From NCBI GenBank assembly GCA_003009755.1, contig PXUB01000037.1, positions 850 to 64,849 of the forward strand: 64,000 bases of DNA, in the 5' to 3' direction. The position numbers were made by a program, and so were the translations under genes. This stretch comes from Thermoplasmatales archaeon SW_10_69_26. GTDB taxonomy: Archaea > Thermoplasmatota > SW-10-69-26. Shown here piece by piece: positions 7,826-64,000 of this stretch. Under the pieces are notes generated by a model, which saw nothing but the letters and a program-made list of their open reading frames with translations, did no database searches and was not told where the DNA came from. The first letter of the stretch is position 1. Every line of letters begins with the position of its first letter.

Positions 7826-7838
7826 GTGGGTCACCTCG

Positions 7839-8513
7839 TCAGTCTCCGTTGCCGGGGCTGTACTGCGGGCGCGGCGGGAAATCGATCCCGTGGTCACGCT
7901 GGGCCTGCTCGCGTTGCTCCATGAGCTCATCGACGTTGTCAGGGGGGAGCAGGTTGCCGAGCCCGTAGTCGGCGGCCATCTTGGCGCGCTCCTTCCACTC
8001 GCAAGCCGGACAAACCAGGCCGTCTCCCTTCGTCTCCATCACGGTGCGGCACTTCGGGCACCGGGCCACGAGGACGCCGAGCCCGTCGTCCTTGGTGAGC
8101 AACTGGATCGACGGGTCGTCGTCGATCACGCGGGCTCGGATCAGGTCGCCGATCCGGAACGCGTCCTCGATCTGGTCGAGGTAATCCGGCGAGATCTTCG
8201 AGATGTGGAGCGTTCCGCTGCCGACCTCGGGCAGCTCACGGCCGGGTTCGGCGGCGTTGGCCTCCAGGTCGACGCTCACGAAGCTCTTCCTGATGGAGGT
8301 AACGCGGCCGATGACGATGTCGCCATCGTCGAGCGTGGCTGGGGTCTGCGTCCGCGGGCGGACGCGAGCCTCGAAGGACCCGGGATCCAGCTCGGCCTCG
8401 CCCACGCGAGCCGCGTAGACCATCCCGTCCTCCTCGTAGGCACCGTCGCCGGGCATGAACTGCTCGGCTACGCCCAGCTCGTCGCCTGGGAAGACGATCT
8501 CGGAGTCGGCCAT
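7839..8513 (-). CDS. csl4: exosome complex RNA-binding subunit Csl4
   Basis: 224 aa from ATG at 8513 (MADSEIVFPGDELGVAEQF...). C-terminal Zn-ribbon CPKCRTVMETKGDGLVCPACEW is typical of archaeal Csl4. The upstream part of the 341-aa ORF is a GC-frame artefact. Confidence 0.8.
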   Translation of the reverse strand: MADSEIVFPGDELGVAEQFMPGDGAYEEDGMVYAARVGEAELDPGSFEARVRPRTQTPATLDDGDIVIGRVTSIRKSFVSVDLEANAAEPGRELPEVGSGTLHISKISPDYLDQIEDAFRIGDLIRARVIDDDPSIQLLTKDDGLGVLVARCPKCRTVMETKGDGLVCPACEWKERAKMAADYGLGNLLPPDNVDELMEQREQAQRDHGIDFPPRPQYSPGNGD

Positions 8514-11666: not shown

Positions 11667-13643
<1,977 letters not shown>

Positions 13644-27649: not shown

Positions 27650-27727
27650 AGGGAGCGGGCCAGTGCACGGTTAAGCGTTGCTTGACAAAATCGCATATTC
27701 CTCGCCCGCGAGGGGTCTCGCGACGCC
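27556..27727. repeat. direct repeat copy A (promoter + first ~30 codons of the 476-aa gene)
   Basis: 134 bp near-identical to 28835-28968 (2 mismatches read). Similarity continues, more diverged, for about 40 further bp. Confidence 0.7.
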
Positions 27728-36731: not shown

Positions 36732-37573
36732 CCGGCCACCTCCTCGCGGTGGAGGCCCCAGGTCAGCCCGGCGAGGCTCACCAGGACCCAGCCGGCGACG
36801 GTCAGCCAGGCGCCCAGTTCCGGGATGGGGCTGGTCTCGATGCCGAGCAGCGTGTGCGTGGTGCGTTCGAGGGCGTCGAAGAGGTCGATCAACAACAGGT
36901 CGGCGTTGTCGGCGACGCCGCGGGCCACGCGGGCGGCGGCCGCGAGCAGGAACACGAGGCCGACCCAGACGGCCGCGGTCCGACCGCGGGCGCCGACGAC
37001 GGCCGAGACCGCCGCGACGACGAGCGTCGTGACGAGGCCGACGAGGACGCTGGCGGCCAGGATGCCCAGCGGCAACAGCCACACGTTGTCGGGGTACAGG
37101 GCCTCGGGCGTGAACGCGACGGCCAGCAGCCAGAGGACGAGCACCGGGACCGCGGTGACGGCCAGCGTCGCCGCGAAGGGACCGGCGCCTTTGCCGGCCG
37201 CGTACCCGGGCTTGGTGAGCGGGTTGGTGAAGTAGAAGGTGAGGCCGCCGGTCTCCAGGTCCTCGGCGATGACGTCGGCCGCGACGGCGGCGAGCACGAA
37301 CGTGACGCCGAACCGGGCCTGGCTGAGGAGGGCGTCGGCCAGGAACGAGGCCGAGAACGGCGTGGCGCCGGGTTGGGCACCCTGGGCGCCGATCTGCAGC
37401 ACCGCGCCGCGCACGGCGATGTGGAGGAACGAGACGCCGAGGATGACCCAGAACCAGAGGGACGAGCCGACCTGGGCGAGCCCGCGCTGGGCGATCGCGC
37501 CGATGCGGGCCAACCGGGAGGTCCGCGAGCCCTCGTAGGCCTCGTAGGCGGGCTCGTAGACGGCGTCGGTCAC
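36728..37573 (-). CDS. ABC-2 family transporter permease (first pair)
   Basis: GTG at 37573 overlaps the upstream ATPase stop (GTGA). Hydrophobic helices throughout. Confidence 0.6.
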   Translation of the reverse strand: MTDAVYEPAYEAYEGSRTSRLARIGAIAQRGLAQVGSSLWFWVILGVSFLHIAVRGAVLQIGAQGAQPGATPFSASFLADALLSQARFGVTFVLAAVAADVIAEDLETGGLTFYFTNPLTKPGYAAGKGAGPFAATLAVTAVPVLVLWLLAVAFTPEALYPDNVWLLPLGILAASVLVGLVTTLVVAAVSAVVGARGRTAAVWVGLVFLLAAAARVARGVADNADLLLIDLFDALERTTHTLLGIETSPIPELGAWLTVAGWVLVSLAGLTWGLHREEVAG

Positions 37574-38484
37574 GCCGATCCCTCCTGCAGGGAGCGGACG
37601 AGCGCCTCCTCGAGATCCTGGCGGGCGGGCGTGAGCTCGCGCACCTGGACGCCGGCCTCGCGGGCCGCCGCCAGCACGAGCCGGGGCCCGGCGTCCTCGG
37701 GCAGGTGGACCAGGCGAACGCCCTCGGGCGAGGTCTCCAGCTCGGCTTCTCGGCCGGCCAGCTGCTCCGCGAAGGCATCGACGTCGCCTCGCACCCGGAC
37801 GCGTAGCGTGGATCGGCGCAGGGCGGTGAGGTCCTCCAGGCGAGCGTTGGTGACGGCTTGCCCGTTGGAGAGCACGAGCGCGCCCTCGCACACGGCCTCG
37901 ACCTCCGGCAGGATGTGGCTGGCCATGACGACGGAGACGTCGTGCGTGCTGGCGAGGTTGCCGACGAGCTCGAGCATCTCCTCGCGGCCCTCGGGGTCGA
38001 GCCCGTTCGTCGGCTCGTCGAGGAACAGCAGGTCGGGATCGTGGACGAGGGCCTGCGCGATCTTGACGCGTTGGCCCATGCCTTGGCTGTAGTCGACCGT
38101 CGGCCGGTAGCGGGCCTCGCCGAGGCCGACGAAGTCGAGCACGCTGTGGGCGCGCTGGGCGGCGACGTCGGCCGGTAGTCCGCCCAGGCGGCCGGCGTAG
38201 GTGACGTACTCGGTGCCGGTGGCGCCGCGCACGAACGCGTCACGCTCGGGGGCGAGGCCGGTCTGCTCGCGCACGCCGACGGGATCCCGGGCGGGATCGA
38301 CGCCGGCCACGCGGGCCGACCCGCTGGTGGGGTCGGTCAACCCCAACAACAGGCGAAGCAGCGTCGTCTTGCCGGCGCCGTTGGGGCCCAAAAGGCCCCA
38401 CGTGCCGGGCGGGATGTCGACGGTGAGATCCTCCAAGGCCTGCACGGGCCCGAACCGCTTGGTTAGGCCGTCGGTGGTGATGAC
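37570..38484 (-). CDS. ABC transporter ATP-binding protein
   Basis: GTG near 38484 or 38493 (...VITTDGLTKRFG...). Walker A GPNGAGKTT. Signature YSQGMGQRVKIA. Walker B LLFLDEPTNGLD. Confidence 0.85.
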   Translation of the reverse strand, partial: VITTDGLTKRFGPVQALEDLTVDIPPGTWGLLGPNGAGKTTLLRLLLGLTDPTSGSARVAGVDPARDPVGVREQTGLAPERDAFVRGATGTEYVTYAGRLGGLPADVAAQRAHSVLDFVGLGEARYRPTVDYSQGMGQRVKIAQALVHDPDLLFLDEPTNGLDPEGREEMLELVGNLASTHDVSVVMASHILPEVEAVCEGALVLSNGQAVTNARLEDLTALRRSTLRVRVRGDVDAFAEQLAGREAELETSPEGVRLVHLPEDAGPRLVLAAAREAGVQVRELTPARQDLEEALVRSLQEGSA

Positions 38485-38548
38485 GGGCGCGACCACGCAG
38501 GGCGAATGCGGGGGATGGGAAGAAGGGTTGGGGTTCGGTCTCGTGACG

Positions 38549-39226
38549 TCACTCGCGGGCGAGCAACCACAGCGCCACACCCGCCACGAGGCCGGCCAGC
38601 GCGGGCGCCCAGACGAGGTCCAGGTTCCCGGCGAAGCGCTCGGTCAGCGGGGCCAGCAGGGCGAAGGCGAGCACGAGCGTGGCGCCGGCGAGCCCAGAGA
38701 CGACGAGCCACCGGATCGCGGCCGCTCGGGTCGCGCGATCGGCGAGCGGGCCACCCAATCCACGGCGTTCCAGCTCGGCGAGCACGCGTTCGCGGGCGCA
38801 GATCCCCATCTCGACGGTCGCCAGCGCGACGAGGCCGGCCGAGACGAGCCACACCTGGGCTGGGGGATCCAGCGTGGCGCCGGCCTGGCCGCCACCGAGA
38901 CGGGCCCAGGGGACGCGTCCGTAGGGGAGGGTGAGCACGGCGACGGTGGCGACGGTCCACAGCCCGAACCCGGTCCCGGTGCGGCCGCTGACGAGGAAGG
39001 TGCCCAACCCGACGAGCGTGGCGAAGCCACCGGTGAACGCGATCGCGAACCCGAGCGTGGCCTCGTCGGGGCCCAACAGTGGTGGGGCGAGCTCGCTGGC
39101 GCCGAGCAGGGCTTGCTCGACCCAGGCCACGTCGCCGGCGACCAGCTGCATCAGGAGGGCGAGGCCGAGCCCGTAGGCGAGCCCGATGGCGCCGCGGCGA
39201 GCTGGGCGGGCCAGCGTCTCAGCCAC
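38549..39226 (-). CDS. integral membrane protein of unknown function (operon member)
   Basis: 225 aa, ~6 TM helices. Start overlaps the DUF58 stop by 8 nt. Confidence 0.5.
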   Translation of the reverse strand: MAETLARPARRGAIGLAYGLGLALLMQLVAGDVAWVEQALLGASELAPPLLGPDEATLGFAIAFTGGFATLVGLGTFLVSGRTGTGFGLWTVATVAVLTLPYGRVPWARLGGGQAGATLDPPAQVWLVSAGLVALATVEMGICARERVLAELERRGLGGPLADRATRAAAIRWLVVSGLAGATLVLAFALLAPLTERFAGNLDLVWAPALAGLVAGVALWLLARE

Positions 39227-40505
39227 GGGGCACCACGTCCTGGAACAGCAGGCGTTCGAGCGGATCCTCGCGCGGGTTCCAGCCGATCACGTGGGCCCCC
39301 AACCGGCGCAGTCGGTCGTGGCGGGGCTGGATCTCGTGGTCGAGGAGGCGAGCGGCTTGGTGGGTCGCCTCGTCGCCGTCGACCAGGTGGTGGGCCAACG
39401 GTTCGATCACGACGACGGGCTGGGGGTCCTCGCCGGCCATCGCGTTGATGCGGCGGATCGCTTCCTCGAGCTCGTCACTAGCAACGTCCGTGCGCGTCAG
39501 GAACACGACCATGGGCTTGTGCTGGACGAGCCAGGCTTGGGAGTCGACGACGGCTTGCAAGGGGCCCTCGTCGGTGTCGCCGGGGGCCAACCGGGACAGG
39601 CGGCGTTGCAGCTTGTGGAATTGCTTGTCGCCGACGTCGGGGTACACGGGATCGCCGGCGTCGGTGTTGTAGGCGTGCAGGCCGACGCGGTAGCCCCGGT
39701 CGAGGTAAGCCATCGCCAGCCCGCTGGCGGCGCCCACGGCGGCCTCGAACCCGTTCTCGACGCTCGTGCCGACGGCCATGTGCCGGCCGGCGTCCAGCAG
39801 GAACCACACGGCCTGGCGGCCCTCGACCTCGTACTCGTTGACGAGCGGGCGGTCGGCGGCCGGGCCCAGGCGGGCGGTGGCCTTCCAGTTCACGGCTTTG
39901 GGCGGGTCGCCGAACCGGTACTCGCGGATCTCGCGGAAGTCGGTCGTCTTCAGGCCGATCCGGGCGGCGTCCTCGTCGGCGCCGACCTCGGCGGCCGTGC
40001 CGCGCATGCGCTGCAGCCGGCGCAGCGGGATCAAGGCCGGGTGCACGTCGATCGTGGCCGCCTCGCCGACGGGCTGGGCCGGCTTTGAGCGCAGGCCCAC
40101 CTGCGGGACGGGTGCCACCTGGGCCGGGCCCAGCTCGTGGCGGCCGCGCTTGGCGGTGCGCACCTTGACCGAGACGGTGTGGGCGTCCTCGCTGGCCGCG
40201 AGCAGGGCGAGGTTGGGGTCCTCGGGCACCGAGAAGGGGTCGGGCAACGGGAGGCTGAGGGCCACCAGGCCGCGGCCGTCGGTCTCGAGGTGCACGCTCA
40301 CGTCGACGAGGTCGCCGGCGCGAGCCTCGGAGGGGGCCTCGATCTCGACGTCGCGGACGTGGGGCGGGGTCTCGGCGAGCCCGACGAGCGCCGTCACGAG
40401 CGGGAGCGCGCTGAGGCCGACGAGCACGAGGTTCGCCGTGCCCAGGCCGGCGACGAGCAGGGTCGTGCCGACGAGCAACAGCCCGTGGGCGGCGCGCGTG
40501 AACAC
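39219..40505 (-). CDS. DUF58-domain protein (MoxR-associated, VWA-like)
   Basis: 428 aa. N-terminal TM anchor. Central region ...REYRFGDPPKAVNWKATARL... matches the DUF58 core. Canonical neighbour of MoxR. Confidence 0.75.
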   Translation of the reverse strand: MFTRAAHGLLLVGTTLLVAGLGTANLVLVGLSALPLVTALVGLAETPPHVRDVEIEAPSEARAGDLVDVSVHLETDGRGLVALSLPLPDPFSVPEDPNLALLAASEDAHTVSVKVRTAKRGRHELGPAQVAPVPQVGLRSKPAQPVGEAATIDVHPALIPLRRLQRMRGTAAEVGADEDAARIGLKTTDFREIREYRFGDPPKAVNWKATARLGPAADRPLVNEYEVEGRQAVWFLLDAGRHMAVGTSVENGFEAAVGAASGLAMAYLDRGYRVGLHAYNTDAGDPVYPDVGDKQFHKLQRRLSRLAPGDTDEGPLQAVVDSQAWLVQHKPMVVFLTRTDVASDELEEAIRRINAMAGEDPQPVVVIEPLAHHLVDGDEATHQAARLLDHEIQPRHDRLRRLGAHVIGWNPREDPLERLLFQDVVPRG

Positions 40506-40508
40506 GGG

Positions 40509-41480
40509 TCAGGCCTCGCCTCGCGAGTACGCGGTGGGCGGCTCGACGTCGCCGATCGCGGCCTCGACGACGTCGGCGTCCTCGGTGCCCTCGATCACGT
40601 GTTCCATGTCGAGCACGATGCGGTGCGCCAGCGCGTCGACGGCCAGGTCCTTGACGTCGTCGGGCGTCACGTAATCGCGGCCGCGGGTCATCGCGAGCGC
40701 TCGACTCAACCGCAACAGGGCGAGGTCCCCGCGCGGGCTGGGGCCGACGTCGACCGCCTCGTGGGCGCGGGCGGTGCGCACGATGCGGGCGATATACTCG
40801 ATGATCGCTTCGTGGACGAAGATCTTGTCCTCGACGACGCGTTGCAGGCGTTGGAAGGTCTGCATCGAGATGACGGGCTCGACGTCGCCGCTGGGGTCGT
40901 TCTTGCTCCAGTCGATGCGGCGGCGCATGATCTCGGACTCGTCGTCGAGCGAGTCGGGGTAGCCCATCTGCAGGCGCACCAGAAAGCGGTCCATCTGGGC
41001 CTCCGGCAGGGGGTAGGTGCCCTCCTGTTCGATGGGGTTTTGCGTGGCGAGCACGAAGAAGGGCGAGGGGATCTCCATCGTGTCGCCCTCGATCGTGACC
41101 TGGCGCTCCTCCATCGACTCCAGCAGCGCGGATTGGGTCTTGGGCGGGGCGCGGTTGATCTCGTCGGCGAGGACGACGTTGGCGAAGATCGGGCCTTTCT
41201 CGAGCTGGAACTCGCCCGTCTTGGGGTTGTAGATGTTCGTGCCGACGATGTCGGCGGGTAGCAGGTCGGGCGTGAACTGGATGCGGTCGAACTCGCAGCC
41301 GACGGCTTGGGCGAACACCTTGACGAGCAGCGTCTTGCCGAGCCCGGGGTAGTCCTCGAACAGGACGTGCCCGTTCGCGAGCGCGGCGGCCAGCAGCTTC
41401 TCGACGGTGTCGGGGTGGCCGACGAACACGTCGTTCACGGTCTCGCGGATCTGGGTGCACTTGCGGGCGACGCGTTTCAC
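40509..41480 (-). CDS. MoxR-family AAA+ ATPase
   Basis: 323 aa from GTG at 41480. Walker A GHVLFEDYPGLGKT. Walker B VVLADEINRA. MoxR signature FFVLATQNPIEQEGTYPLPEAQMDRF. Confidence 0.9.
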   Translation of the reverse strand: MKRVARKCTQIRETVNDVFVGHPDTVEKLLAAALANGHVLFEDYPGLGKTLLVKVFAQAVGCEFDRIQFTPDLLPADIVGTNIYNPKTGEFQLEKGPIFANVVLADEINRAPPKTQSALLESMEERQVTIEGDTMEIPSPFFVLATQNPIEQEGTYPLPEAQMDRFLVRLQMGYPDSLDDESEIMRRRIDWSKNDPSGDVEPVISMQTFQRLQRVVEDKIFVHEAIIEYIARIVRTARAHEAVDVGPSPRGDLALLRLSRALAMTRGRDYVTPDDVKDLAVDALAHRIVLDMEHVIEGTEDADVVEAAIGDVEPPTAYSRGEA

Positions 41481-42571
41481 AGGGGGGCCTCCTGGGGGTC
41501 CTCGAGGTGGGCGAGCACGCGGTCGACGGCTTCCCGGCGGGCTTGGCGGTCGCCCTCGGCGCGGCGGCGGCCGACGACGAGCGTCAGCGCGGTGCCGGTG
41601 CCTTCGATGGCGAGGAAGGCCAGCACGGTGGCGATCGCGACGGTTGCGACCTCCAGCGTGACGTCGAGGGCGCCGGGGAGGCTGAGGAATCCGGCGAGCA
41701 GAGGGTCGAGCGTGAACACGACGGCGCCTGCACCGAGCGCGAGCAGAAAAGCCCGGCGGAGCTTGGCGAGCGTGCCCGACAGCTGGTGCTCGACGACGCC
41801 CCACGGCGGGTCGGTGGCCTCGTTGCGGATCGTGGTGTGGAGGGTGGCGACGAGGCCGGCGAGGGCGAGGACGGCCAGCAGGCCGCCGGTGAGGGGTGAG
41901 GCGGTGAAGAACCGCAAGGCGCCGAGCCCGAACAGGCCGACGCCGACGAGGCCGAGCGCGAGCCCGGTCTTGGGGGCGCTGGCCTGGTGGGCCCGCCATT
42001 GCAACATCGTGAGACTGGTCCCGGTGACGAGCAGGATCGGCGGGACGATCGCGATGCCGAGACCCTGGGCCAGCGAGGCGACGGCGAGGCCGAGGCCGAG
42101 CGTGACGACGATCCCGGCGAGCAACCGGACGCCGAGCAGGGCGCGGGTGGGGGCGCGGGCACCGGCGGCGGCTCGCAGCTGCTCGGCCAGGCGCTGGCTG
42201 GCGGCGTCCCCGAGGCCGCGGGCCTGGGCGGCCTGGTGGACGTGATCCAACAACAGGGGGGCCAGGCGGCCCTCCTCGACGTAGGCTTGCATCGCGGATC
42301 GCAGATCCTCGTAGTCCTCGTCGACCTGCGGTCGAGCGCGTTGCTGGTGGGGGGCCAGCGCGCCCCGGATGGGGCGTCCGGTGCCCGCGATGGACCGGCC
42401 CAGGTCCACGAGCAGCGCGAACAGAAGGATGCCGAGCCCGAACCGAGCGGCGGCGAGGGGAGCGGGATCGAGCACGGTGCGGGCGCCCAGGTAGACGACG
42501 ACGGCGACGAGCGCGATCGCGGCGCGGGGCACGATCGCCAGCGGTGCGTCGGCCGTGGAGGCCTCAGCCAC
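41477..42571 (-). CDS. polytopic membrane protein of unknown function (operon member)
   Basis: About 364 aa from GTG at 42571 (VAEASTADAPLAIVPRAAIALVAVVVYLG...), about 8 TM helices. Stop overlaps the MoxR GTG (GTGA). The upstream Arg/Pro-rich part of the 475-aa ORF is a frame artefact. Confidence 0.5.
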   Translation of the reverse strand: MAEASTADAPLAIVPRAAIALVAVVVYLGARTVLDPAPLAAARFGLGILLFALLVDLGRSIAGTGRPIRGALAPHQQRARPQVDEDYEDLRSAMQAYVEEGRLAPLLLDHVHQAAQARGLGDAASQRLAEQLRAAAGARAPTRALLGVRLLAGIVVTLGLGLAVASLAQGLGIAIVPPILLVTGTSLTMLQWRAHQASAPKTGLALGLVGVGLFGLGALRFFTASPLTGGLLAVLALAGLVATLHTTIRNEATDPPWGVVEHQLSGTLAKLRRAFLLALGAGAVVFTLDPLLAGFLSLPGALDVTLEVATVAIATVLAFLAIEGTGTALTLVVGRRRAEGDRQARREAVDRVLAHLEDPQEAPL

Positions 42572-45500
42572 GGGGGTCGGCCTCCCGGACCAGCTGCATG
42601 AAGCCCTCGTAGTCGTCGCGGTCGACCGGTTGGGGCGAGTAATCGTAGCGTTCGAACCGGCGCGCCAGCTCGTCGGCCGGTGGACCCAGAGCCCGGGCGA
42701 GCTCGCGCGGGGTGGCATCCGGGCCCACGAGGCCGTGCCGGGTCGCGGTGCGGCGAAGCTGGCGGTAGGCGCGGTCGATCTCCTCGCGGTAGTCGCCGAC
42801 GCGCACGTCGAGCACGGTCTCGCGGGCGGGATCGTCGGCGAGGCGAGCGCGGTAGGTGTAGGTACCGCCAGGGCGGGCCGGCACGGTGGCGCGCGCCGTC
42901 CCATCGCTGCCCAGCTCGAGCCGGCGGGTGCCCTCGGGGCCGTCGAGCTCGAGGGTCCCCGTGATGGTCTCGTCGTGCCGGGCTCGGGCGAGGATCTCGG
43001 TCGGCTCCCCGGGGTGCCAGACCGGCGGGTCGCCGGGGGTCTGGTGGGCCAACCGCAGCGAGATCGGGGAGGCCTCGTCGGGGTCGTCGGTGGGGGTTCT
43101 CGCTTGACGGCGACGGACGGCGACGAGCGCGGCGAGCCCGAGCGCGGCGGCGGCCGCCGACAGCCAGCCCCACGGCAGCGGAGCCGCGGTGACCTCGGCG
43201 CTGGCGGTGGTCAGGCTCTGGGCGGTCGTGGGGGTCGAACGGGCAAGCACCTCGATGTCGACGATGCCCTCGGCGTCGTCGGGTCGCGAGAGGGAGAGGT
43301 TGGCCGTGCCGTCCTCGCCGGTGATCGCGCGGTCGCTGGCCTCGAAGGCGCCCTCGGCCTGGGCGATGACTGGCACGCCGGCCAGCGGTCCCTGGCGGCC
43401 TTCGGCGGTCACCGCCAGCTGAACCGGGCGGCCGTCTCGTCCCTCGTCGGCGACGTCGACGGCCAACGTCGGCGTCTCGAGGATCCGGAGCGGGGCTCGG
43501 GTGGTGAACCGGGCGTCGGGGAGGGTGAGGTTGGCGGGTTGGAGGCCGGGCTGGGCGTCGTCGGGGGCACGCAGGTTCACCTGGGCGCGGCCGTCGGCGT
43601 CGGTGCGGTCCTGGGAGACGAAGCTGGGCCCGGCCAGGCGGACGGGCTGGTCGGTGAGCGGCGTGTCGTCGACGGTCAAGCGCAGGGAGCCGTTGGCCGA
43701 ACCCCCGGGGGCGATGTGGAGGTCGGCCTCGACCTCGAGCGGGGCCGCCGACAGGGTGAGGTTGCGGCCGGTGGGGCGGAAGCTGTTCGGCGGATGGACC
43801 TCCAGGCGGACGGGGTGGTCGCCGGTGTTCGGCATCGGGGCTCGCAGGCGAGCCTGGCCGGCCTGGTCGGTGAGGGTCTCGTCGGTGAGCCCGGTCTCGG
43901 TGTGGGCGTGGACCTCGATCGCGGGCATCGTCGTGCCGTTGTCGGCTTCGAGCCGGACGTCGATCGGGGCTTGGGCGCCGACCGGTTGGGGGCCCGGCGA
44001 TCCCGTCCGCAGCTGGAGGCCGGCGGTGGCGGTGAGGACGAGGCGACGGTTGGCGTCCACGGCGGGGGCCTCGAGCTCGACGGTGTGGTTGCCGGGCGCG
44101 AGGTCGGCGGGGACGGGCAACCCGAGCGTGAACGCGCCGCGGGGGTCGGTGTCGGTCGTGGCCGTGACGTCGCCGTAGCTGGCTTCCAGGCGGACGCGAC
44201 CGGGTTCGCCGTCCTCGGTGAGGACGCGGCCCTCGATCTCGGTGGGCTCGCCGCGGGGGGCCCGGTGCTCGGCGGGGGCTTGGATGCGGGCTTCGACGGC
44301 CTGGATCGTGCCCTCGGTGGCGTCGGCGGTGACGTTCTCGGTCCCCGGGAAGGTCGCCGTGATCGTGTAGTTCCCGGGGAAGGGTAGCCCGCCGGGCAGC
44401 ACGGCGTGGGCGCGGCCGTCGGCGCCGGTGCGGGCCGTGAGGCGGTCGTCGGTGTCCTCGACCGCGAACACGATCGTCCGGTTGGGGATCGGCGCCTCGT
44501 AGGCGTCCACGAGCCGGGCTTCGAGCGGTAGGGGCACGTCGACGCCGGCGCGGTCGGGCAGGTCCAGGCGGACATCGGCCTCGCCTTCGACGGCGACCAC
44601 GGGGTCGCTCCAGGCGCCGGCCAGGGGTGGATCGTGCATCCCTCGGGGGTGGGCGTGAGCCAGGACGTGGTAGGGGCGGGTCGGGGCGTCTGCAGGGAGC
44701 TTGGCGCTGGCGGTGAACGTGCCGGCGGCGTTCGTGCTCGCGGACCCGGTCTGGATCTCGATGCCGGGCGCGTTCTTCGTGGCGTTGGCGTACACCGTGA
44801 CCGGATGGTCCCGCAGCGGCTCGCCGGCGGGGCCGAGCACGCGTCCAACCACCTCGAAGGCCTCGCCCTTGCGGATCCGGTCGGGGGCATCGGTCACCGT
44901 GATCGTCGGCCGCTCTCGCCGGATATCCTCGGGCGGGGCCTCGGAGCCGCTGCGGGCGCGGTCCAGCAGGTCCGCGAGGCCTTCGGTGTCGGCCGGCCCG
45001 CCGGCCGAGCGGTGGACGACGGTGCCGGCGGGCAGCTCGACGGTCTCGGTGGCGAACACCGAGGACCAGGCGCTGGGGGGTCCCGAGGGGTGGGCGCGGG
45101 CGCCGGGCTCGAGGTCCAGCCGCGTGCCGGCCGGGAACCTCACGGGCGGCAGCTGGAGCTCGGCGTCGGCGGGCAGGGGGACCTTGGCGCCGGGTTCGAG
45201 CACGGTGGCCGCCCCGATCTCCTCCCCGCCCGGGGAGGTCACGGAAGCGTTGGGCGGGAGCGCGAGCTCTTGGTCGCCGGTCTGCAGCTGGCAGGGCGTG
45301 GTGCAGGTGAGCGCGTCGCCCTTATGCTCCCAACCGTCGGCCAGGACGAGCGTGCCGGTGAGGCTCGCAGGGGCGGGACGGATCGTCTCGCCGGGATCGA
45401 TCGTCACCCGTCCCGGTCCCGTGAGGCGAACCCCATCGTCGGTGCGTTCGCGGTCGGGAAGCTGGGCCCGCGTGGGGTCGAGCAGCGTCAGCTCGGGGAT

Positions 45501-45668
45501 CGGCAGCCCCGATCGCGGCTCTTGGACCTCCCGGGCGGGTGCATCGCGGGCCTGTTGGGACCGTTCGGTGACCTCCTGCCGGACCTCGGCGATGAGGGCG
45601 GTGGAGAGCCCCAGCAGGCCGACGAGCAGGAGGAGGCCGGCCGCGAGCTGGAGGGACCGCTGTGCCAC
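42564..45668 (-). CDS. giant membrane-anchored protein with repeated Ig-like/carboxypeptidase-regulatory-like domains and a C-terminal DUF4129 domain
   Basis: 1034 aa. N-terminal anchor MAQRSLQLAAGLLLLVGLLGL. Internal TM segment WGWLSAAAAALGLAALVAV. C-terminal ...TPRELARALGPPADELARRFERYDYSPQPVDRDDYEGFMQLVREA matches the DUF4129 consensus. Confidence 0.65.
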   Translation of the reverse strand: MAQRSLQLAAGLLLLVGLLGLSTALIAEVRQEVTERSQQARDAPAREVQEPRSGLPIPELTLLDPTRAQLPDRERTDDGVRLTGPGRVTIDPGETIRPAPASLTGTLVLADGWEHKGDALTCTTPCQLQTGDQELALPPNASVTSPGGEEIGAATVLEPGAKVPLPADAELQLPPVRFPAGTRLDLEPGARAHPSGPPSAWSSVFATETVELPAGTVVHRSAGGPADTEGLADLLDRARSGSEAPPEDIRRERPTITVTDAPDRIRKGEAFEVVGRVLGPAGEPLRDHPVTVYANATKNAPGIEIQTGSASTNAAGTFTASAKLPADAPTRPYHVLAHAHPRGMHDPPLAGAWSDPVVAVEGEADVRLDLPDRAGVDVPLPLEARLVDAYEAPIPNRTIVFAVEDTDDRLTARTGADGRAHAVLPGGLPFPGNYTITATFPGTENVTADATEGTIQAVEARIQAPAEHRAPRGEPTEIEGRVLTEDGEPGRVRLEASYGDVTATTDTDPRGAFTLGLPVPADLAPGNHTVELEAPAVDANRRLVLTATAGLQLRTGSPGPQPVGAQAPIDVRLEADNGTTMPAIEVHAHTETGLTDETLTDQAGQARLRAPMPNTGDHPVRLEVHPPNSFRPTGRNLTLSAAPLEVEADLHIAPGGSANGSLRLTVDDTPLTDQPVRLAGPSFVSQDRTDADGRAQVNLRAPDDAQPGLQPANLTLPDARFTTRAPLRILETPTLAVDVADEGRDGRPVQLAVTAEGRQGPLAGVPVIAQAEGAFEASDRAITGEDGTANLSLSRPDDAEGIVDIEVLARSTPTTAQSLTTASAEVTAAPLPWGWLSAAAAALGLAALVAVRRRQARTPTDDPDEASPISLRLAHQTPGDPPVWHPGEPTEILARARHDETITGTLELDGPEGTRRLELGSDGTARATVPARPGGTYTYRARLADDPARETVLDVRVGDYREEIDRAYRQLRRTATRHGLVGPDATPRELARALGPPADELARRFERYDYSPQPVDRDDYEGFMQLVREADPRG

Positions 45669-45688
45669 GATGGACCGTCATCGAGGGG

Positions 45689-46079: not shown

Positions 46080-47144
46080 ATGTCTGAGGACGAGACCGAG
46101 GAAGCGTTCTGCGTGGCTTGCGGCGCCCCCGACCCGCTCAGCGGCGGCCGCTGCGGGCGCTGCGTCCGGCAGCAGGTCGAGGCCGTCAAGGGCACCGACC
46201 AGCCCGTCGAGATCGAGCAGTGCGCCCACTGTGGCTCCTTCGAGGCCGGCCACGACATCGAGGACGCCGAGAGCGTCGTCGAGGCCGTCGAGCGGGCCGC
46301 CGTGGGGTCCGTGTTGATCCCGCGCGAGCTCGAGGACCTGGAGATCGGCGTCCGCACGCATCGCCGCGACCCGAGCGCGTTCGACGTGACCGTGGAGGCT
46401 CGCGGCCACTTCGACGGCGAGGTCCCGCTCGAGGGAGCCGCCGAGGTCCCCGTCCAAGTCGAGACGATCTCCTGTGATGCCTGCTCGCGCCGCCACGGGG
46501 GCTACTACGAGGCGATCGTGCAGGTCCGCTACGAGGGTGACGAGGAGGTCTCCGAGGAGCAGGCTGGCGACATCGCCGTGATGATCGAGGAGGAGGTCCG
46601 AGCCGCCGGGAGGCTCTCCGGGGGGTCCTCCTACCTCTTGAAGGCCACGCCCAAACACGGCGGATACGACTACTACTTCGGGGCCAAGCCCGTCGCCAAG
46701 TCCGTCGCGGGCCGCATCGCGGACATGTACGGCGGCGAGAAGACGCACTCGACGACGCTGGCGGGCCGCAAGGACGGCGAGGAGTTCCACCGGTTGACGA
46801 TCTCGGTCCGCATCCCGCGTGTCCGACCCGGCAGCGTGGTGGCCTTCGAGGACGAGATCCTCCGGATCCACGGCCGCCACGGCAACCGGCTCGTCGGCAA
46901 GACCGTCCCCGAGGGCGATGGCCGCACGATCGAGCAACGGAAGACCGACAAGGCCCAGGTCCTCGAGCCCCGGTTGGCCGAGGTCGTCTACGCCGAGGCC
47001 GGCGAGGGCCAGATCCTCGATCCCGACACCTTCGACAGCGTGCAGGTCAAGCTCCCGATCGGCGTCGAGGCGGGAGACGAGGTCGAGGTCGCCAAGTACC
47101 GCGGCCGGATCGTCGTGCTCGGCGAGCCCGGCTTCGAGGCGTAG
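46080..47144 (+). CDS. nmd3: NMD3-family ribosomal large-subunit export/biogenesis factor
   Basis: 354 aa. N-terminal treble-clef Cys clusters CVACG...CGRC...CAHCGS and later CDACSRRHGGYYEAIVQVR are typical of archaeal NMD3. Confidence 0.8.
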   Translation: MSEDETEEAFCVACGAPDPLSGGRCGRCVRQQVEAVKGTDQPVEIEQCAHCGSFEAGHDIEDAESVVEAVERAAVGSVLIPRELEDLEIGVRTHRRDPSAFDVTVEARGHFDGEVPLEGAAEVPVQVETISCDACSRRHGGYYEAIVQVRYEGDEEVSEEQAGDIAVMIEEEVRAAGRLSGGSSYLLKATPKHGGYDYYFGAKPVAKSVAGRIADMYGGEKTHSTTLAGRKDGEEFHRLTISVRIPRVRPGSVVAFEDEILRIHGRHGNRLVGKTVPEGDGRTIEQRKTDKAQVLEPRLAEVVYAEAGEGQILDPDTFDSVQVKLPIGVEAGDEVEVAKYRGRIVVLGEPGFEA

Positions 47145-59131: not shown

Positions 59132-60187
59132 GTGGACGCAGCCCGCCTCGCCGAGCGGTTGACGGCCGAGCAGGACGCCCAGCACGCGTTGACGGCCGCC
59201 GCGGACGCGCTGAGGGAGGCCGGCCTCGCGGTCGACCGGGACGAGGAGCACCAAGCGATCGCTGCGGTTCGCGGCTCGCCCGGCGCCGTGCTCAGCGGCC
59301 ACGTCGACGTGGTGCCGGTCAGCGACGAGTGGAGCCGCCCCGCCTTCGGCAACGCGTTCGACGACGACCGGTTGTACGCCCGCGGGGCCAGCGACATGCG
59401 CGGCCCGGTGGCGGCGATGATCGCGGCCCTGGATCGCACCGAGGCACCCGTCGGCGTCGTGCTCACGACCGACGAGGAGACCACGATGGACACCGCGCGG
59501 GCCTACGCCGAGCACGACCGGTTCGCCGACGCCGACGTCGTGCTCGTCGGGGAACCGACCGGGATGGACGTCGCCGTCGCCGGCAACGGCCTGGTGTGGG
59601 TGCGCGTCGACGCCGACGGGGCTCGCGGGCACGCTTCCACGCCTCGACCCCAGGCCCGGGGGCCCTCGGCGCCCGAGCGCTTGATCGAGGCGCTGGCCGG
59701 CCTCGACCCGCGGCCCTTCCGCGTGGAGCATCCCCGCTTGGGGAAGGCGACCTTGGCGGTGTCCGGCATCGAGAGCGAGGCGACCCCGTTCAACGTGCTC
59801 GCCGGCGAGGCCGAGGCCCGCATCGATATCCGGTTCCCGCCGCCCAAGACGCCCGACGAGGTGGAGGCCTCGCTGCGCAGCCGGCTGGACCTCCCTCGGG
59901 AGGGGCTAAAGCTGTCCGTCGAGAAGCGGGAGCCGGCGTTCCTCGGCGACGAGGGCCAGGGCAAGCGAGCCGCGGATGCGTTGAGCCTGGCGGGCGTGGA
60001 TGCGTCCGTGACGGGCGTGGGCTACGTCACCGAAGCCGGCCACTGGCAACGCGTCACCGACACGCTCGTCGTCGGGCCGGGCTCGATCGATCGAGCCCAC
60101 GCGCCCGACGAGTACATCACGCGGGACGAGCTGACGACGGCCGTCGACGGGTACGCCGCCCTGATCGAGGCCTTCGCTCCCGTTTAG
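59132..60187 (+). CDS. M20-family metallopeptidase (ArgE/DapE-type deacylase)
   Basis: 351 aa, GTG start. Metal-ligand contexts LSGHVDVVP, ...RGASDMRGPVA..., TTDEET and a C-terminal HAPDEY. Confidence 0.8.
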   Translation: MDAARLAERLTAEQDAQHALTAAADALREAGLAVDRDEEHQAIAAVRGSPGAVLSGHVDVVPVSDEWSRPAFGNAFDDDRLYARGASDMRGPVAAMIAALDRTEAPVGVVLTTDEETTMDTARAYAEHDRFADADVVLVGEPTGMDVAVAGNGLVWVRVDADGARGHASTPRPQARGPSAPERLIEALAGLDPRPFRVEHPRLGKATLAVSGIESEATPFNVLAGEAEARIDIRFPPPKTPDEVEASLRSRLDLPREGLKLSVEKREPAFLGDEGQGKRAADALSLAGVDASVTGVGYVTEAGHWQRVTDTLVVGPGSIDRAHAPDEYITRDELTTAVDGYAALIEAFAPV

Positions 60188-60756
60188 ACTGCCGGTCTTG
60201 TTTTGCTTAGGCTCTCGCGCCGGTCTGGGGAGACCGGGGACGGTCTCCCGAGCCTGCGAGCCCGGAGGGCTCGTGCGAGGGAGCGTGGCACGGTCGCGGA
60301 GCCCGAGGAAACCAACCCTCGCGGGTTGTCGACGGACACTGCCCGGATCAGAGATCCGGGCGCGGCTAAGATCGCCCGGACGAGCGAGATCTCACGGGGG
60401 CCGACAACGGCCGAGCACCGGTCGGCGTGGCCGACCGGTCTCGGCTGCGCATCTTCGATTCGTAGAGCAAGGGGCCCGCCGCAGACCGGCGCACCAGAGC
60501 ATTTCCGGTCCCACGGTCTCCCCCTACGAGCGGTTGGCCAGGAAATGTTCACCAAATCGAGGGGGAGCGGTCTCCGTAACCCCCCTCACGGCGGGGCCGC
60601 CCGCAGGCGGCGACGACGCAAGGTCCCCACGTCCGCTTGCTGCAAGCGTTGTCGCCGTCGACCTCGACGTAGCCTCTGGCTACTCCTTCGTCTCGGCTCC
60701 GCGCTTTCACCGCCTGAGGCCGAGCGAGAGCCGAACCCAAGCATCGCCGGCAGTCT
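60185..60756. repeat. 572-bp non-coding element flanked by an 11-bp perfect inverted repeat (TAGACTGCCGG / CCGGCAGTCTA); MITE-like or structured-RNA candidate
   Basis: IR-L overlaps the peptidase TAG stop. Internal CGGTCTCC motif occurs 3x within the element and again at 60779. Two mutually exclusive perfect hairpins lie at 60222-60250 (ccggtct-gggg-agaccgg vs gggagaccg-ggga-cggtctccc). The ORFs across it are basic and low-complexity, i.e. not coding. Confidence 0.3.
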
Positions 60757-61111
60757 AGGCGCTCAACTGGGGACGTCGACGGTCTCCGCGAGCCGTCCGT
60801 CGGGTTCGTGCACCTTGATCGTGGTCGCCGACCCTCGCCGCGCCAGGTCCCGCGCTTCATCTAGGGCGGCGAACTTCGAGTCGTGGCGGCTCTCGGCCGT
60901 GGGAGCACCTTCACGGAGCACCTTCCATCGCCCCCCGTCGTCCTCGGCCACGTGCAGCGTGTCCGGGTCCACCCGCCATGCCATCTTCGGCTCCATGTCA
61001 ACCCTTGACAGTGCTTCGAAGGTGGATAAACCTACCGCCGCCGGGGGCTCGCGCGACGTGGAAAGGTTCGTGCGGACACCTTTCCCCGCCGGCGTCCTCC
61101 CCATCTCCCCG

Positions 61112-62032
61112 ATGGCGGGTCCCCGATTCCCCAACCTCTTCATCGCCGGCGTCCCGAAGGCAGCCACGACGACCTGGTACCAGGCCCTCGACCACCACCC
61201 CGACGTCTTCATGTCCCCACGCAAGGAGATGCGCTACCTCGACCGAGACCTCACCTTCGACAACCGTGTCGAGACCGAGGACGCCTACCTGGCCCACTTC
61301 GCGGACGCAGAGGGCCAGGCACGGATCGGCGAAGCTTCCCCGTGGTACTTCTACAGCGACGAGGCCCCCCGTTCGATCCGCGACAACGCCGAGGACCCCC
61401 GCGTCCTCGTGTTCCTGCGGGACCCGGTCGAGCGCCTGTACTCCCTGCACGGCCAGATGGTCAACTCTGGGGCCGAGACGATCGGGAGCTTCCGCGAGGC
61501 CCTGGCCGCCCAACCCGATCGCGAACGCGGCCGCCGGTTGCCGGACCTGCTCGAACCGCGCGAAGGCCTTCGCTACTGGGACATCGCCCACTATGGTCCT
61601 CACGTCCGCCGCTACCTCGACACCTTCGACGACGAGGAACTGATGTTCGTCCGGTTCGACGACTTCACGACGGACCCCGAGGGCGTCTTCCGCGAGGTCT
61701 GCACGTTCCTGGGCGTCGACCCGAACGTCCGCCCGGCCATCCCCGCCTCCAACACCCACCGCGTGCTCCGGAGCCACCGCGTGCGCGATTTCCTCGCCGA
61801 TCCGCCCGAACCCGTGCGAGAGATCGCCCACCGCGTCCCCGGAGACTGGCCGACCCAAGCCCGCGACATCCTGTGGCAGCTCAACCTCAAACCCGCCGAA
61901 CGCGACCCGATGCCGGAGGACCTTTGCCGGACGCTGACCGAACATTGCCGCCCCGACATCGAAGACGTCGAGGACCTGCTCGGCTGGGACCTGTCCGATT
62001 GGAGGCGCCGGGACCCCCTCGAGGAGGCCTGA
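61112..62032 (+). CDS. sulfotransferase-family protein
   Basis: 306 aa. PAPS 5'-phosphosulfate-binding loop FIAGVPKAATTTW. 3'-phosphate-binding region ...VLVFLRDPVERLYSLHGQ.... Acidic. Confidence 0.75.
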   Translation: MAGPRFPNLFIAGVPKAATTTWYQALDHHPDVFMSPRKEMRYLDRDLTFDNRVETEDAYLAHFADAEGQARIGEASPWYFYSDEAPRSIRDNAEDPRVLVFLRDPVERLYSLHGQMVNSGAETIGSFREALAAQPDRERGRRLPDLLEPREGLRYWDIAHYGPHVRRYLDTFDDEELMFVRFDDFTTDPEGVFREVCTFLGVDPNVRPAIPASNTHRVLRSHRVRDFLADPPEPVREIAHRVPGDWPTQARDILWQLNLKPAERDPMPEDLCRTLTEHCRPDIEDVEDLLGWDLSDWRRRDPLEEA

Positions 62033-62102
62033 AACCGGCAGGCTTACCAGACCGCGCACGCTCTTAGCCGCAAGCCCCCGCCGCGGGCCGCCTCACGCCG
62101 CC

Positions 62103-63056
62103 ATGCCCTCCCAGCCCCCGCCCGACCCCGACGACCGCTGGCCGAGTTTCTACCTCCTCGGCGCCGAGAAAGCCGGGACCACGTCCCTGTACCACTACCT
62201 CCGCCAACACCCCGACGTGTTCCTGCCCGAGGAGAAAGAGCCCGGGTTCTTCTCGCTGTACTGGGACATCGCCGTCGAACCCGCCAAGACGGTCGAACGC
62301 ACCTGGGGGTCCTTGGTCGACTTCGACCGCTTCGACGGGTTCGAGGACGCCCTCGCCGTCTACCGGTCCCTGTACCAGGGCGCCCCCGCCGACGCCGAAC
62401 GCGGCGACTGCACGGCCAGCTACCTCTGGCACCCCCGCACGCCCGAACGCATCGAGACGCTGACGCCCGAGGCTCGGTTCCTCGTCCTCGTGCGCGACCC
62501 CGTCGAGCGAGCCTTCAGCCACTACCTCATGGTCCGACGCGCCGGCGCCGAAGAGCGCGCGTTCCTCGACGCCCTCGAACGCGACCTCGAACGCGAGGGC
62601 ACCGAGGAAGCCCCGCACCGCTACCTCCTCAGCGGCCGCTACACGGAGCAGATCGAACGCTACACCGACCGCTTCGGGTCCGAGAACGTGCACGTCGTCT
62701 TCACCGAACGCATGGCCAAGTCCACCGACGCCGTGCTGCACGACGTGGCTCGGTTCCTCGGTCTCCCCACCCGACCGATCGATCGGATGGACACCGGGGA
62801 ACGTCACAACCCCTACCGCGAACCCGCCAACGCCCTCGCCGACTGGCTGCGCACCAACGACACGATCAAGAGCCTCGCCCAGGCGCTGCTCCCTAAGAGC
62901 GTGCGCGATGTGCTCGGCAACGAGGTCCTCATGCGAGCCGAGGACAGGCCGACGATGAGCGACGAGGCTCGCGCCTTCCTCGAGGACCACTACGCCGAGG
63001 AACCCGAGAGCCTCGAAGACCTGATCGGCAAGCGCCCACCCTGGTCGTGGGCCTGA
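62103..63056 (+). CDS. sulfotransferase-family protein (second, tandem paralogue)
   Basis: 317 aa. 5'-PSB loop YLLGAEKAGTTSLYHYL. 3'-PB region FLVLVRDPVERAFSHYL. Confidence 0.75.
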   Translation: MPSQPPPDPDDRWPSFYLLGAEKAGTTSLYHYLRQHPDVFLPEEKEPGFFSLYWDIAVEPAKTVERTWGSLVDFDRFDGFEDALAVYRSLYQGAPADAERGDCTASYLWHPRTPERIETLTPEARFLVLVRDPVERAFSHYLMVRRAGAEERAFLDALERDLEREGTEEAPHRYLLSGRYTEQIERYTDRFGSENVHVVFTERMAKSTDAVLHDVARFLGLPTRPIDRMDTGERHNPYREPANALADWLRTNDTIKSLAQALLPKSVRDVLGNEVLMRAEDRPTMSDEARAFLEDHYAEEPESLEDLIGKRPPWSWA

Positions 63057-63111
63057 GGTCCGCCGACGGGGAACGAAGGAACCATATGCGTCACGCCGGC
63101 ATGCTGGCCGC

Positions 63112-64000
63112 GTGCGCGTCGGCACGTTCCTGCGGACCTGGTTCCGAGGCGGCGGCGTCTCCCGGCACACGCTGGAGCTCGTCGAACGCCTCACCGACGT
63201 AGAATGGGTCTGCTTCGGTCACGGCTTCGAGACCGAGGTCCCCACCCCCATCGAGGTCGCCGGCGTGCCTGGTCCCCCCGCCGTCAAGGACGTCGCCAAC
63301 CTCGCCCGCTCGCCGTGGCTGATCGACCAGCTGCGCGAGGATCACGATCTCGACCTCTTCCACGCGCAGGACACGAACACGCTGGGCCACGACATCGTGA
63401 CCGTGCACAGCTGCTTCCCCGCCTACGCCCACGCCGAGCTCTCGCAGCTGTACACGCTCGTCCACCCGATGTACCACAAGAACTTGGTCAGCCAGAAGCT
63501 CGTGCTCGAGAACACCGACGGCCTGATCGTCGCCGTCAGCGAGGACCTCCGCGAGGACCTGCTGGACTTCTACGACCTCGACCCCACCCAGGTTCGCGTC
63601 GTCTACAACGGCGTCGACTTGGAGGCCTTCCACCCCGACGTCGACGGCTCCCCCATCCGGCGAGAGCACGGGATCGACCCCGAGACCCCGCTGTTGTCGT
63701 TCGTCGGCCACGAGTACGAGCGCAAGGGCTTCGACGACATCCTGCAAGCCCTTACCCGGCTCCCCGACGAGGTCGAGCTGCTCACCGTCGGCGGTGGCGA
63801 CCACGAGCCCTGGAAAGCCCGGGCGCGCGAGCTCGGCGTGGCCGACCGCGTCACCTGGGCCGGGTACGTGCCCGACGAGCAACTGCCCGCCCACTACGCG
63901 GCCTCGGACGTGTTCGTCTTCCCCACCCGCTACGAGTCCTTCGGCCTCGTCGTGCTCGAAGCCATGGCCACCGGCACCCCGACCGTCGCCGGCGACTTGG
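63112..64000 (+). CDS. GT4-family glycosyltransferase, 3'-truncated at window edge
   Basis: GTG at 63112 (VRVGTFLRTWFRGGGVSRHTLEL...). C-terminal part shows the GT4 EX7E context ...FVFPTRYESFGLVVLEAMATGTPTVAG.... The frame is open to the window end, so it is absent from the ORF track. Confidence 0.75.
   Translation, partial: MRVGTFLRTWFRGGGVSRHTLELVERLTDVEWVCFGHGFETEVPTPIEVAGVPGPPAVKDVANLARSPWLIDQLREDHDLDLFHAQDTNTLGHDIVTVHSCFPAYAHAELSQLYTLVHPMYHKNLVSQKLVLENTDGLIVAVSEDLREDLLDFYDLDPTQVRVVYNGVDLEAFHPDVDGSPIRREHGIDPETPLLSFVGHEYERKGFDDILQALTRLPDEVELLTVGGGDHEPWKARARELGVADRVTWAGYVPDEQLPAHYAASDVFVFPTRYESFGLVVLEAMATGTPTVAGDL

Follow-up and report, generated by a model that had tools for sequence, protein, structure and literature searches.

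A sulfotransferase and GT4 glycosyltransferase cassette as a candidate glycan-sulfation unit in a halophilic archaeon

In animals, heparan sulfate (HS) sulfotransferases are anchored in the Golgi membrane and have heparan sulfate as their substrate. Among bacteria, genetic evidence shows that Synechocystis needs XssA for its sulfated exopolysaccharide synechan (PMC8205485). Extreme halophilic archaea characteristically have sulfated glycans and glycolipids. Among archaeal sugar sulfotransferases, Agl30 and Agl31 alone are backed by experiments, which included their expression in Haloferax volcanii, and their fold is sulfatase-like. Both are Hbt. salinarum proteins (VNG1056C and VNG1057C) of the alkaline-phosphatase/sulfatase type, one of them membrane-bound, and their genes lie within the aglB cluster (PMC11980604). 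According to a 2024 review, candidate archaeal sulfotransferases are still uncharacterised (PMC11625862). Here we analyse a 64,000-nt stretch of archaeal DNA (the window), of which the last ~3 kb are filled by a cassette of two sulfotransferase genes, ST1 and ST2, followed by a gene for a GT4 glycosyltransferase.

The explanation that we favour, at about an even balance of confidence, is that these genes form an operon-like cassette that would add a sugar and then sulfate it on a surface glycan of an archaeon with a salt-in way of life. Conserved linkage of a GT4 gene with several sulfotransferase genes makes them specific candidates for another route to sulfated glycoconjugates in archaea, one of bacterial type.

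Two predicted sulfotransferases and a GT4 glycosyltransferase

The three genes lie head-to-tail on the plus strand, separated by gaps of 70 and 55 nt, as follows.

61112-62032, plus strand: ST1, predicted soluble sulfotransferase of 306 aa using 3′-phosphoadenosine 5′-phosphosulfate (PAPS-type), a divergent subfamily member (Pfam, motifs)
62103-63056, plus strand: ST2, predicted soluble PAPS-type sulfotransferase of 317 aa (Pfam, motifs, AlphaFold2 model, Foldseek)
63112..64000, plus strand: glycosyltransferase of the retaining family GT4 (GT-B), of whose 366 aa the first 296 are encoded here, with a GTG start; the gene is cut by the window end

The initial annotation had described two sulfotransferase genes head-to-tail with a GT4 gene directly after them. 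This arrangement holds at the coordinates given here, and the position from which that annotation started, 61112, is the true start of ST1; the orthologue P0311 begins at the same place.

As far as sequence and predicted fold can be read, ST1 and ST2 belong to the PAPS-dependent sulfotransferase superfamily, and every feature that could be tested agrees with this assignment. Both match the Pfam families Sulfotransfer_3 (ST1, 2e-11; ST2, 3e-15) and Sulfotransfer_1 (8e-11 and 1e-11), with scores of 44.9 and 42.3 bits for ST1 and of 57.6 and 45.1 bits for ST2, all of which pass the gathering cut-offs of 27 and 22. The 5′-phosphosulfate-binding motif (5′-PSB) reads PKAATTT in ST1 (nt 61154-61174) and EKAGTTS in ST2 (nt 62166-62186), and the 3′-phosphate-binding motif (3′-PB) reads RDPVERLYS (nt 61418-61444) and RDPVERAFS (nt 62493-62519), respectively. 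Both motifs had been recognised in the initial annotation, and they are indeed intact at these places in both genes. A Lys-Glu pair is found at K38-E39 of ST1 (nt 61223-61228, inside the stretch RKEMRY at nt 61220-61237) and at Lys45-Glu46 of ST2 (nt 62235-62240). In an alignment of 55 sequences (ST1, ST2 and 53 homologues), this pair is present throughout, ST1 included (55/55); the 5′-PSB Lys is found in 48 of the 55 and its Thr-Thr is invariant; both Arg residues of the 3′-PB are invariant and its Ser is missing from one sequence only (54/55). ST1 and ST2 keep all of these 5′-PSB and 3′-PB residues. ST1 deviates from the family consensus at seven near-invariant positions, yet it retains the catalytic set. 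In the HMMER alignment, Glu46 of ST2 falls on the Glu of the stretch NEVHFF of human 3-OST-1, which we take to contain the catalytic Glu90; two positions after the aligned Glu there is His in 3-OST-1, Gly in ST2 and Arg in ST1.

A search of the PDB sequences returned the entry 3RNL over the full length of both proteins, far beyond chance (E 3e-35 for ST1 and 4e-39 for ST2), and besides 3RNL only HS sulfotransferases pass. The AlphaFold2 model of ST2 (pLDDT 90.4, pTM 0.87) gave, in Foldseek, top matches that are all sulfotransferases with bound PAPS or its product PAP (3′-phosphoadenosine 5′-phosphate). Here again 3RNL came first (5e-16), followed by the sulfotransferase domain of NDST1 and by HS 3-OST-1, -3 and -5 (E 1e-11 to 1e-9), while lower ranks were taken by CurM (4e-8), tyrosylprotein sulfotransferases (~5e-6) and cytosolic SULTs (1e-5 or worse). 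Fold and sequence similarity thus support a placement of ST1 and ST2 in the predicted carbohydrate-acting, HS 3-OST/NDST-like branch of a family that is functionally heterogeneous and counts 28,372 representatives at E<=1e-3.

By its domains, the third cassette protein belongs to CAZy family GT4. It shows a Glyco_transf_4 N-domain (1e-16, 61.8 bits) and a Glycos_transf_1 C-domain (8e-28, 97.6 bits), both passing the Pfam cut-offs, and the EX7E motif ESFGLVVLE at nt 63934-63960 (aa 275-283). Its best matches are MshA (1e-28), the SPS-like Tll1590, the maltose-1-phosphate synthase GlgM and PimA; enzymes of the MshA, SPS-like and GlgM types act on small phosphorylated acceptors and those of the PimA type on lipid head groups. 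A metagenome scan with the full GT4 sequence, in a collection that apparently lacks the JGI samples of the related contigs L005 and L001 (see below), returned only relatives of 25-32% identity, and tblastn of GT4 against plasmids gave generic matches of 25-41%, mostly to the C-terminal domain, a few of them on haloarchaeal replicons. A place for this GT4 in a defence or conflict system was considered on account of a PF20706 match (6e-8) and rejected, this match being far weaker than the generic GT4 domain matches.

None of the sulfotransferases, nor the GT4, has transmembrane segments, and all have a pI of 4.6-5.0, like the cytoplasmic proteins of the host. The codon usage of the cassette genes is host-like. 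Since they are soluble and acidic, the cassette enzymes would act in the cytoplasm.

Related loci, flanking sequence and host

Two metagenome contigs from JGI samples, L005 and L001, are related to the window. L005 (5.1 kb) is 98.4% identical to window positions 60996-64000 and extends 2.1 kb beyond the window end. Its gene order is sulfotransferase, sulfotransferase, GT4 (visible at full length, 366 aa, at 2120-3220), sulfotransferase, and then, convergently, a 77-aa ORF and a HAD-IIIA phosphatase. The two features of interest past the window end are these.

L005 3254-4165: third sulfotransferase, 45 nt after GT4, ~0.25-1.2 kb past the window end
L005 4544-5107, minus strand: HAD-IIIA phosphatase (GmhB/histidinol-phosphatase type), convergent, truncated by the contig end

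The third sulfotransferase is interrupted by an in-frame TAG at L005 3476-3478, where homologues have Glu, and it reads RDPIAAIHS instead of RDPxxRxxS, so that the otherwise invariant second Arg is gone. It is probably a pseudogene in the L005 strain, unless the TAG is a sequencing error. Pyrrolysine was considered as a reading of this codon and rejected: the homologues have Glu, GAG and TAG are one step apart, the invariant Arg is lost as well, and no pyl genes are in view. The phosphatase matches a heptose-1,7-bisphosphate phosphatase model at 2e-31, below its cut-off; it could be part of a sugar-phosphate pathway, or have nothing to do with one.

In L001 the order is a DUF2188 gene on the minus strand, four tandem sulfotransferase genes and GT4, right after which the contig stops. 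The GT4 of L001 is a 77% identical orthologue of the window GT4, as against 57% for the sole orthologous sulfotransferase pair, and an ST1 orthologue is lacking there. The sulfotransferase complement hence differs among relatives, with four genes before GT4 in L001 and a third one after GT4 in L005. By contrast with the block itself, the outer flanks differ between the window (upstream, genes for an ArgE/DapE-like deacylase and for an ABC transporter of the Liv type) and L001 (MCM and FKBP), so that the conserved unit consists of DUF2188, the sulfotransferases and GT4, with or without a further sulfotransferase after it.

ST1 and ST2 had been called paralogous, which is right in the broad sense of a common family and not in the sense of recent copies. 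They are 28% identical, and further relatives of ST1 (35-45% identical) are nearer to it than ST2 is; they hence represent different subfamilies and not recent tandem duplicates. The accompanying suggestion that two copies serve two sulfation positions understates the case, as these are members of different subfamilies and the full complement is of 3 to 4 genes, varying among relatives. The orthologue P0311 is 68% identical to ST1 and keeps PKAATTT. ST2 has orthologues at 97% (P0001), 62% (P0002) and 57% (STc of L001), and its exact protein sequence has no database record, a 97% identical protein being recorded. In a neighbour-joining tree of the sulfotransferases, the group of ST2 orthologues has 99% bootstrap and deeper nodes have at most 14%; because this group is all that the tree resolves, it supports neither one nor several acquisitions. 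Comparison of the window with L005 yields 9 synonymous and 1 non-synonymous differences for ST1, which is hence under purifying selection, and 6 synonymous and 10 non-synonymous differences for ST2. The changed amino acids of ST2 fall mostly within the last ~55 residues (window 62894-63024), and this C-terminal region may be under relaxed or diversifying selection, judging by these counts.

Outside this lineage, homologues at 36-38% identity sit within complete Wzx/Wzy polysaccharide clusters that include a priming transferase, a UDP-glucose dehydrogenase, GT2 glycosyltransferases, Wzz, Wzy and a flippase. On pSymB of S. meliloti, a GT4 gene comes directly after a homologous sulfotransferase gene; their cluster has three sulfotransferases and also encodes a Wzy-like protein, an exporter and a chain-length determinant. 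Synechocystis XssA is a distant homologue (~23% identity, measured with the L001 paralogue STa), and two Binataceae homologues adjoin an LPG_synthase_TM (lipid-flippase-like) gene. Furthermore, a genome-collection scan with ST2 returned three distant bacterial loci only, a scan of viral contigs with the sulfotransferase profile returned matches of at most 37% identity only, and in tblastn of ST2 and L001 STa against plasmids the matches listed were all bacterial.

The immediate upstream side of the cassette contains two features.

60763..60996, minus strand: DUF2188 small protein of 77 aa (Pfam DUF2188, 3e-11), transcribed divergently from ST1
60997..61111, no strand assigned: divergent intergenic region of 115 nt, read from the sequence, the presumed promoter region of ST1 and DUF2188

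The DUF2188 gene is the sole flanking gene whose linkage to the sulfotransferase/GT4 block is kept in both the window and L001, where its orthologue (7614-7841, minus strand) is 68% identical and matches in position and orientation. A scan for bacterial-type promoters found none in 60997..61111, a scan that is not applicable to archaea. No match was obtained in a tRNA scan, in an Rfam scan at gathering thresholds or in a scan for bacterial terminators.

Between the ArgE/DapE-like gene and DUF2188 lies a 575-nt gap (60185-60757) without a credible ORF, with an imperfect inverted repeat of 34 nt (79% complementary) at its borders. It folds far better than shuffled controls (z of -6.1 on the plus strand and -5.1 on the minus strand). 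No Rfam match was found for it, nor a second copy of its terminal repeat in the window. The gap is the exact upstream border of the cassette and is missing at that position in L001; it may be an insertion resembling a miniature inverted-repeat transposable element (MITE) or a structured RNA.

The window has a G+C content of 66-75% and a very acidic proteome. Archaeal markers in it are NMD3 and TruD, identified by family search, as well as proteins resembling RpoL and Csl4, recognised from their translations; L001 has MCM. The nearest relatives of the window DnaK (11670-13637, minus strand) are 85% and 72-73% identical, the latter from NCBI records. The next level, ~59-64%, is shared by one bacterium, Methanohalarchaeum and every named member of the Halobacteria listed. 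Relatives of NMD3 (46080-47141, plus strand) reach down to 48%, the remaining matches being at most 32% and the named ones only methanogen proteins at 24-26%. Since DnaK is equally distant from Halobacteria, Methanohalarchaeum and a bacterium, and NMD3 is far from named proteins, the host is apparently a halophilic archaeon of a poorly sampled, deep-branching lineage and not a classical haloarchaeon.

Elsewhere in the window, a very large secreted protein is encoded at 20611-26384 on the minus strand, with a signal-like N-terminus, a subtilisin-like part and many Gly/Asp-rich repeats. It seems to pass from the frame 21657-26222 into the frame 20611-22386, which would point to a frameshift, programmed or otherwise, or to an assembly error. 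Two secreted repeat/beta-helix proteins flank it (18444-20621 and 26219-27670). A further block, at 37570-45677, contains a MoxR AAA+ ATPase, DUF58, a large membrane-anchored repeat protein and ABC transporter genes, and is partly syntenic with L016 1-6300 of the nearest NCBI relative, GCA_964396185.1; partial synteny with this assembly also extends to biotin carboxylase, DnaK, DnaJ and methyltransferase genes.

Candidate products of the cassette

In the favoured explanation, the soluble, retaining GT4 would work on the cytoplasmic side of the membrane, where it would move a hexose from a nucleotide sugar to a lipid-linked glycan, and each soluble sulfotransferase would place a PAPS-derived sulfate ester on a different hydroxyl or sugar before outward flipping. 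The end product would be a sulfated, strongly anionic surface glycoconjugate, be it the repeat unit of an exopolysaccharide or a glycan N- or O-linked to protein. A precedent is the N-glycan of Hbt. salinarum, which is sulfated while still bound to dolichol phosphate (DolP) (PMC11980604). The PAPS donor, the carbohydrate acceptor, the lipid carrier and the surface display are all inferred; candidate acceptors range from protein-linked glycans and exopolysaccharides to glycolipids and small solutes. A carbohydrate is the best supported type of acceptor because of the polysaccharide contexts of homologues and of the structural nearness to glycosaminoglycan sulfotransferases. Because relatives share GT4 and differ in their sets of sulfotransferases, the sulfation pattern is probably strain-variable. 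Taken together, a conserved GT4, changing sulfotransferases, one interrupted copy and a selection that is purifying on ST1 and looser on ST2 would be more in keeping with genes for a variable surface structure than with those for an osmolyte or a core lipid.

Several results weigh against the proposed surface-glycan cassette. The known archaeal N-glycan sulfotransferases have another fold (PMC11980604). The surrounding sequence was surveyed in those ORFs that were scanned or read within the 61 kb upstream, which is a part of them, and in 2 kb downstream in L005 and 8 kb upstream in L001: we found no flippase, AglB oligosaccharyltransferase, priming transferase or Wzy there, and no gene for sugar-nucleotide or PAPS synthesis. 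On the side of the glycosyltransferase, every NCBIfam equivalog is far below its cut-off (MshA 138 bits against 462; Agl16 61 against 575), the N-terminal acceptor domain matched no characterised enzyme, and the best matches concern small phosphorylated acceptors or lipid head groups. Finally, no haloarchaeal replicon with a sulfotransferase homologue is present among the plasmid-collection matches listed.

The initial annotation had proposed a narrower version of the same idea, in which the two sulfotransferases sulfate two positions of an S-layer N-glycan within an agl pathway. As a special case of the favoured explanation it shares the fold, motif and linkage evidence; sulfation at the DolP stage by two position-specific enzymes is known from Hbt. 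salinarum (PMC11980604), a soluble GT4, Agl16, takes part in N-glycosylation in Sulfolobus and matches the cassette GT4 weakly (NCBIfam, 7e-17, far below cut-off), and the window encodes large secreted proteins rich in N-x-S/T sites. On the other hand, neither agl genes, aglB included, nor a flippase or DolP-glycosyltransferase were found in the surveyed sequence, and extension of the contig through L005, which that annotation had called for, brought the interrupted third sulfotransferase, the 77-aa ORF and the HAD-IIIA phosphatase, with no agl genes. The characterised archaeal enzymes have the sulfatase fold and not that of Sulfotransfer_1/3 (PMC11980604); ST1 and ST2 match the Sulfotransfer families only and not the superfamily of Agl30/Agl31, as judged by family and not by direct alignment. 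Identified in 2025, Agl30 and Agl31 also make outdated the statement that the sulfotransferases responsible are largely unassigned (PMC11980604). Also against this version, the host is a halophilic archaeon outside the classical haloarchaea (DnaK at most 64% identical to named Halobacteria). In some archaea, agl genes are scattered, and for this reason their absence nearby only lowers the standing of an N-glycan, which is a possible target to which nothing points specifically; we consider it doubtful, both as the acceptor in general and in this S-layer version. What stands of the initial proposal is a glycan-sulfation locus as the best reading, on the strength of the 3-OST/NDST branch, the conserved GT4 linkage and the polysaccharide contexts; its S-layer N-glycan part is not supported. 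Somewhat less likely still is that GT4 adds an alpha-linked hexose to glycosyl-archaeol and that the sulfotransferases sulfate the head group, giving lipids of the S-DGD, S2-DGD and S-TGD type. Extreme halophilic archaea have sulfated diglycosyl and triglycosyl diethers as hallmark lipids, and we know of no sulfotransferase assigned to haloarchaeal sulfated glycolipids; a literature search likewise found no assignment of genes for their synthesis, which we count in favour of a glycolipid. The retaining GT4 family includes lipid-head-group enzymes, PimA being matched at full length, with weaker matches to GlcN-PG synthase, the glycolipid-anchor transferase IagA/BgsA and processive diacylglycerol glucosyltransferase. 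Moreover, the LPG_synthase_TM neighbours of the two Binataceae homologues agree with a lipid acceptor, and a single glycosyltransferase without flippase or polymerase suits head-group decoration. A core lipid pathway is expected to be conserved, however, yet relatives have different sulfotransferase sets, with one copy interrupted; a simple analysis of hydropathy and charge revealed no amphipathic or basic membrane-binding feature, and both the lack of homologues on haloarchaeal replicons in the plasmid matches listed and a lineage outside the class Halobacteria speak against a haloarchaeal lipid pathway.

A sulfated small glycoside or solute, resembling sulfotrehalose, we regard as distinctly improbable. 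Here, GT4 would make a sugar-phosphate glycoside, the HAD phosphatase would dephosphorylate it and the sulfotransferases would sulfate the free sugar. The top GT4 matches do glycosylate small phosphorylated acceptors (MshA at 1e-28, Tll1590, maltose-1-phosphate synthase), a HAD-IIIA phosphatase lies ~0.4 kb downstream in L005, and in Sulfolobus a GT4-type trehalose-6-phosphate synthase pairs with a HAD phosphatase (PMC7688234). Furthermore, 2-sulfotrehalose is an osmolyte of haloalkaliphilic archaea, for which the Natrialba genome offers a route through trehalose-phosphate synthase and phosphatase, with no sulfotransferase named (PMC3403918). Yet the matches of MshA, SPS and GlgM type are confined to the generic donor-binding C-terminal domain (residues ~127-361), and the phosphatase gene is convergent, separated by another ORF and seen at one locus only. 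In addition, 3-4 divergent sulfotransferases are too many for a single solute, the nearest structural relatives act on polysaccharides and the closest bacterial homologues sit in polysaccharide clusters. Least probable of all, and by our estimate only a slight chance, is that the adjacency is incidental or the locus decaying, with a non-carbohydrate acceptor (peptide, lipid or secondary metabolite) or non-functional sulfotransferases. The very large and heterogeneous family, the functionally uncharacterised state of the closest structure, 3RNL, the interrupted third copy in L005 and the excess of non-synonymous over synonymous differences in ST2 (10 against 6) between 98%-identical strains would all agree with this. 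Against it, the linkage of sulfotransferases and GT4 is kept at 77% GT4 identity though the outer flanks differ, purifying selection on ST1 is clear, the catalytic and PAPS-binding residues of ST1 and ST2 are intact, and codon usage and acidity match the host.

Comparison with known sulfation systems

The closest structure, 3RNL from Alicyclobacillus acidocaldarius, shares with the cassette sulfotransferases a soluble, single-domain architecture of ~300 aa with a C-terminal helical extension, at 27% identity in the structural alignment, and comes from a bacterium that is not halophilic. Because its PDB entry is titled just 'Sulfotransferase', it gives no information on the acceptor. With the HS 3-OSTs and the NDST domain (1ZRH, 1T8T, 1NST, 8CD0), ST1 and ST2 have in common the 5′-PSB Lys and the RDPxxRxxS 3′-PB at an identity of 18-21%; these enzymes use PAPS on hydroxyl or amine groups of carbohydrates. 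Unlike the animal HS enzymes, ST1 and ST2 are soluble, acidic and predicted to be cytoplasmic. The GT4 shares the GT-B fold, both domains and the EX7E motif with MshA, PimA, BshA and Agl16, and differs from them in falling below all their equivalog cut-offs and in having an acceptor domain without a specific match.

Agl30 and Agl31 offer a possible functional analogy: in a halophilic archaeon, the two sulfate sugars of a DolP-bound glycan, each at its own position (PMC11980604). ST1 and ST2 differ from them in their Sulfotransfer_1/3 fold, in being soluble and in that no agl gene was found near them in the surveyed sequence. In the most far-reaching reading, these genes would be the first PAPS-type carbohydrate sulfotransferases in Archaea with an assigned role, in a fast-evolving cassette of one conserved GT4 and 2-4 exchangeable sulfotransferases whose product would be a strain-specific surface-glycan sulfation pattern, or else sulfated glycolipid head groups or a solute of the sulfotrehalose type, for both of which we found no sulfotransferase assigned, in a host branching deeply outside the classical Halobacteria; the whole of this extended claim we advance only tentatively and consider rather unlikely to hold in full. 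A varying sulfotransferase complement would then be a simple example of how surface glycans diversify. The value of the finding is limited by an uncultured host and by gene types that are common in bacteria; the annotation is of use and otherwise a fairly ordinary one.

Among bacteria, the xss cluster of Synechocystis (XssA, XssE) and the cluster on S. meliloti pSymB combine sulfotransferases of the same Pfam families with GT4 genes. The archaeal cassette differs from both in that no Wzx, Wzy, co-polymerase, export or priming-transferase genes were found around it in the window, L005 and L001, and in that it has 3-4 sulfotransferases per glycosyltransferase. By this comparison of gene content, the arrangement is best described as a compact counterpart, in an unusual host, of the bacterial clusters for sulfated polysaccharides.

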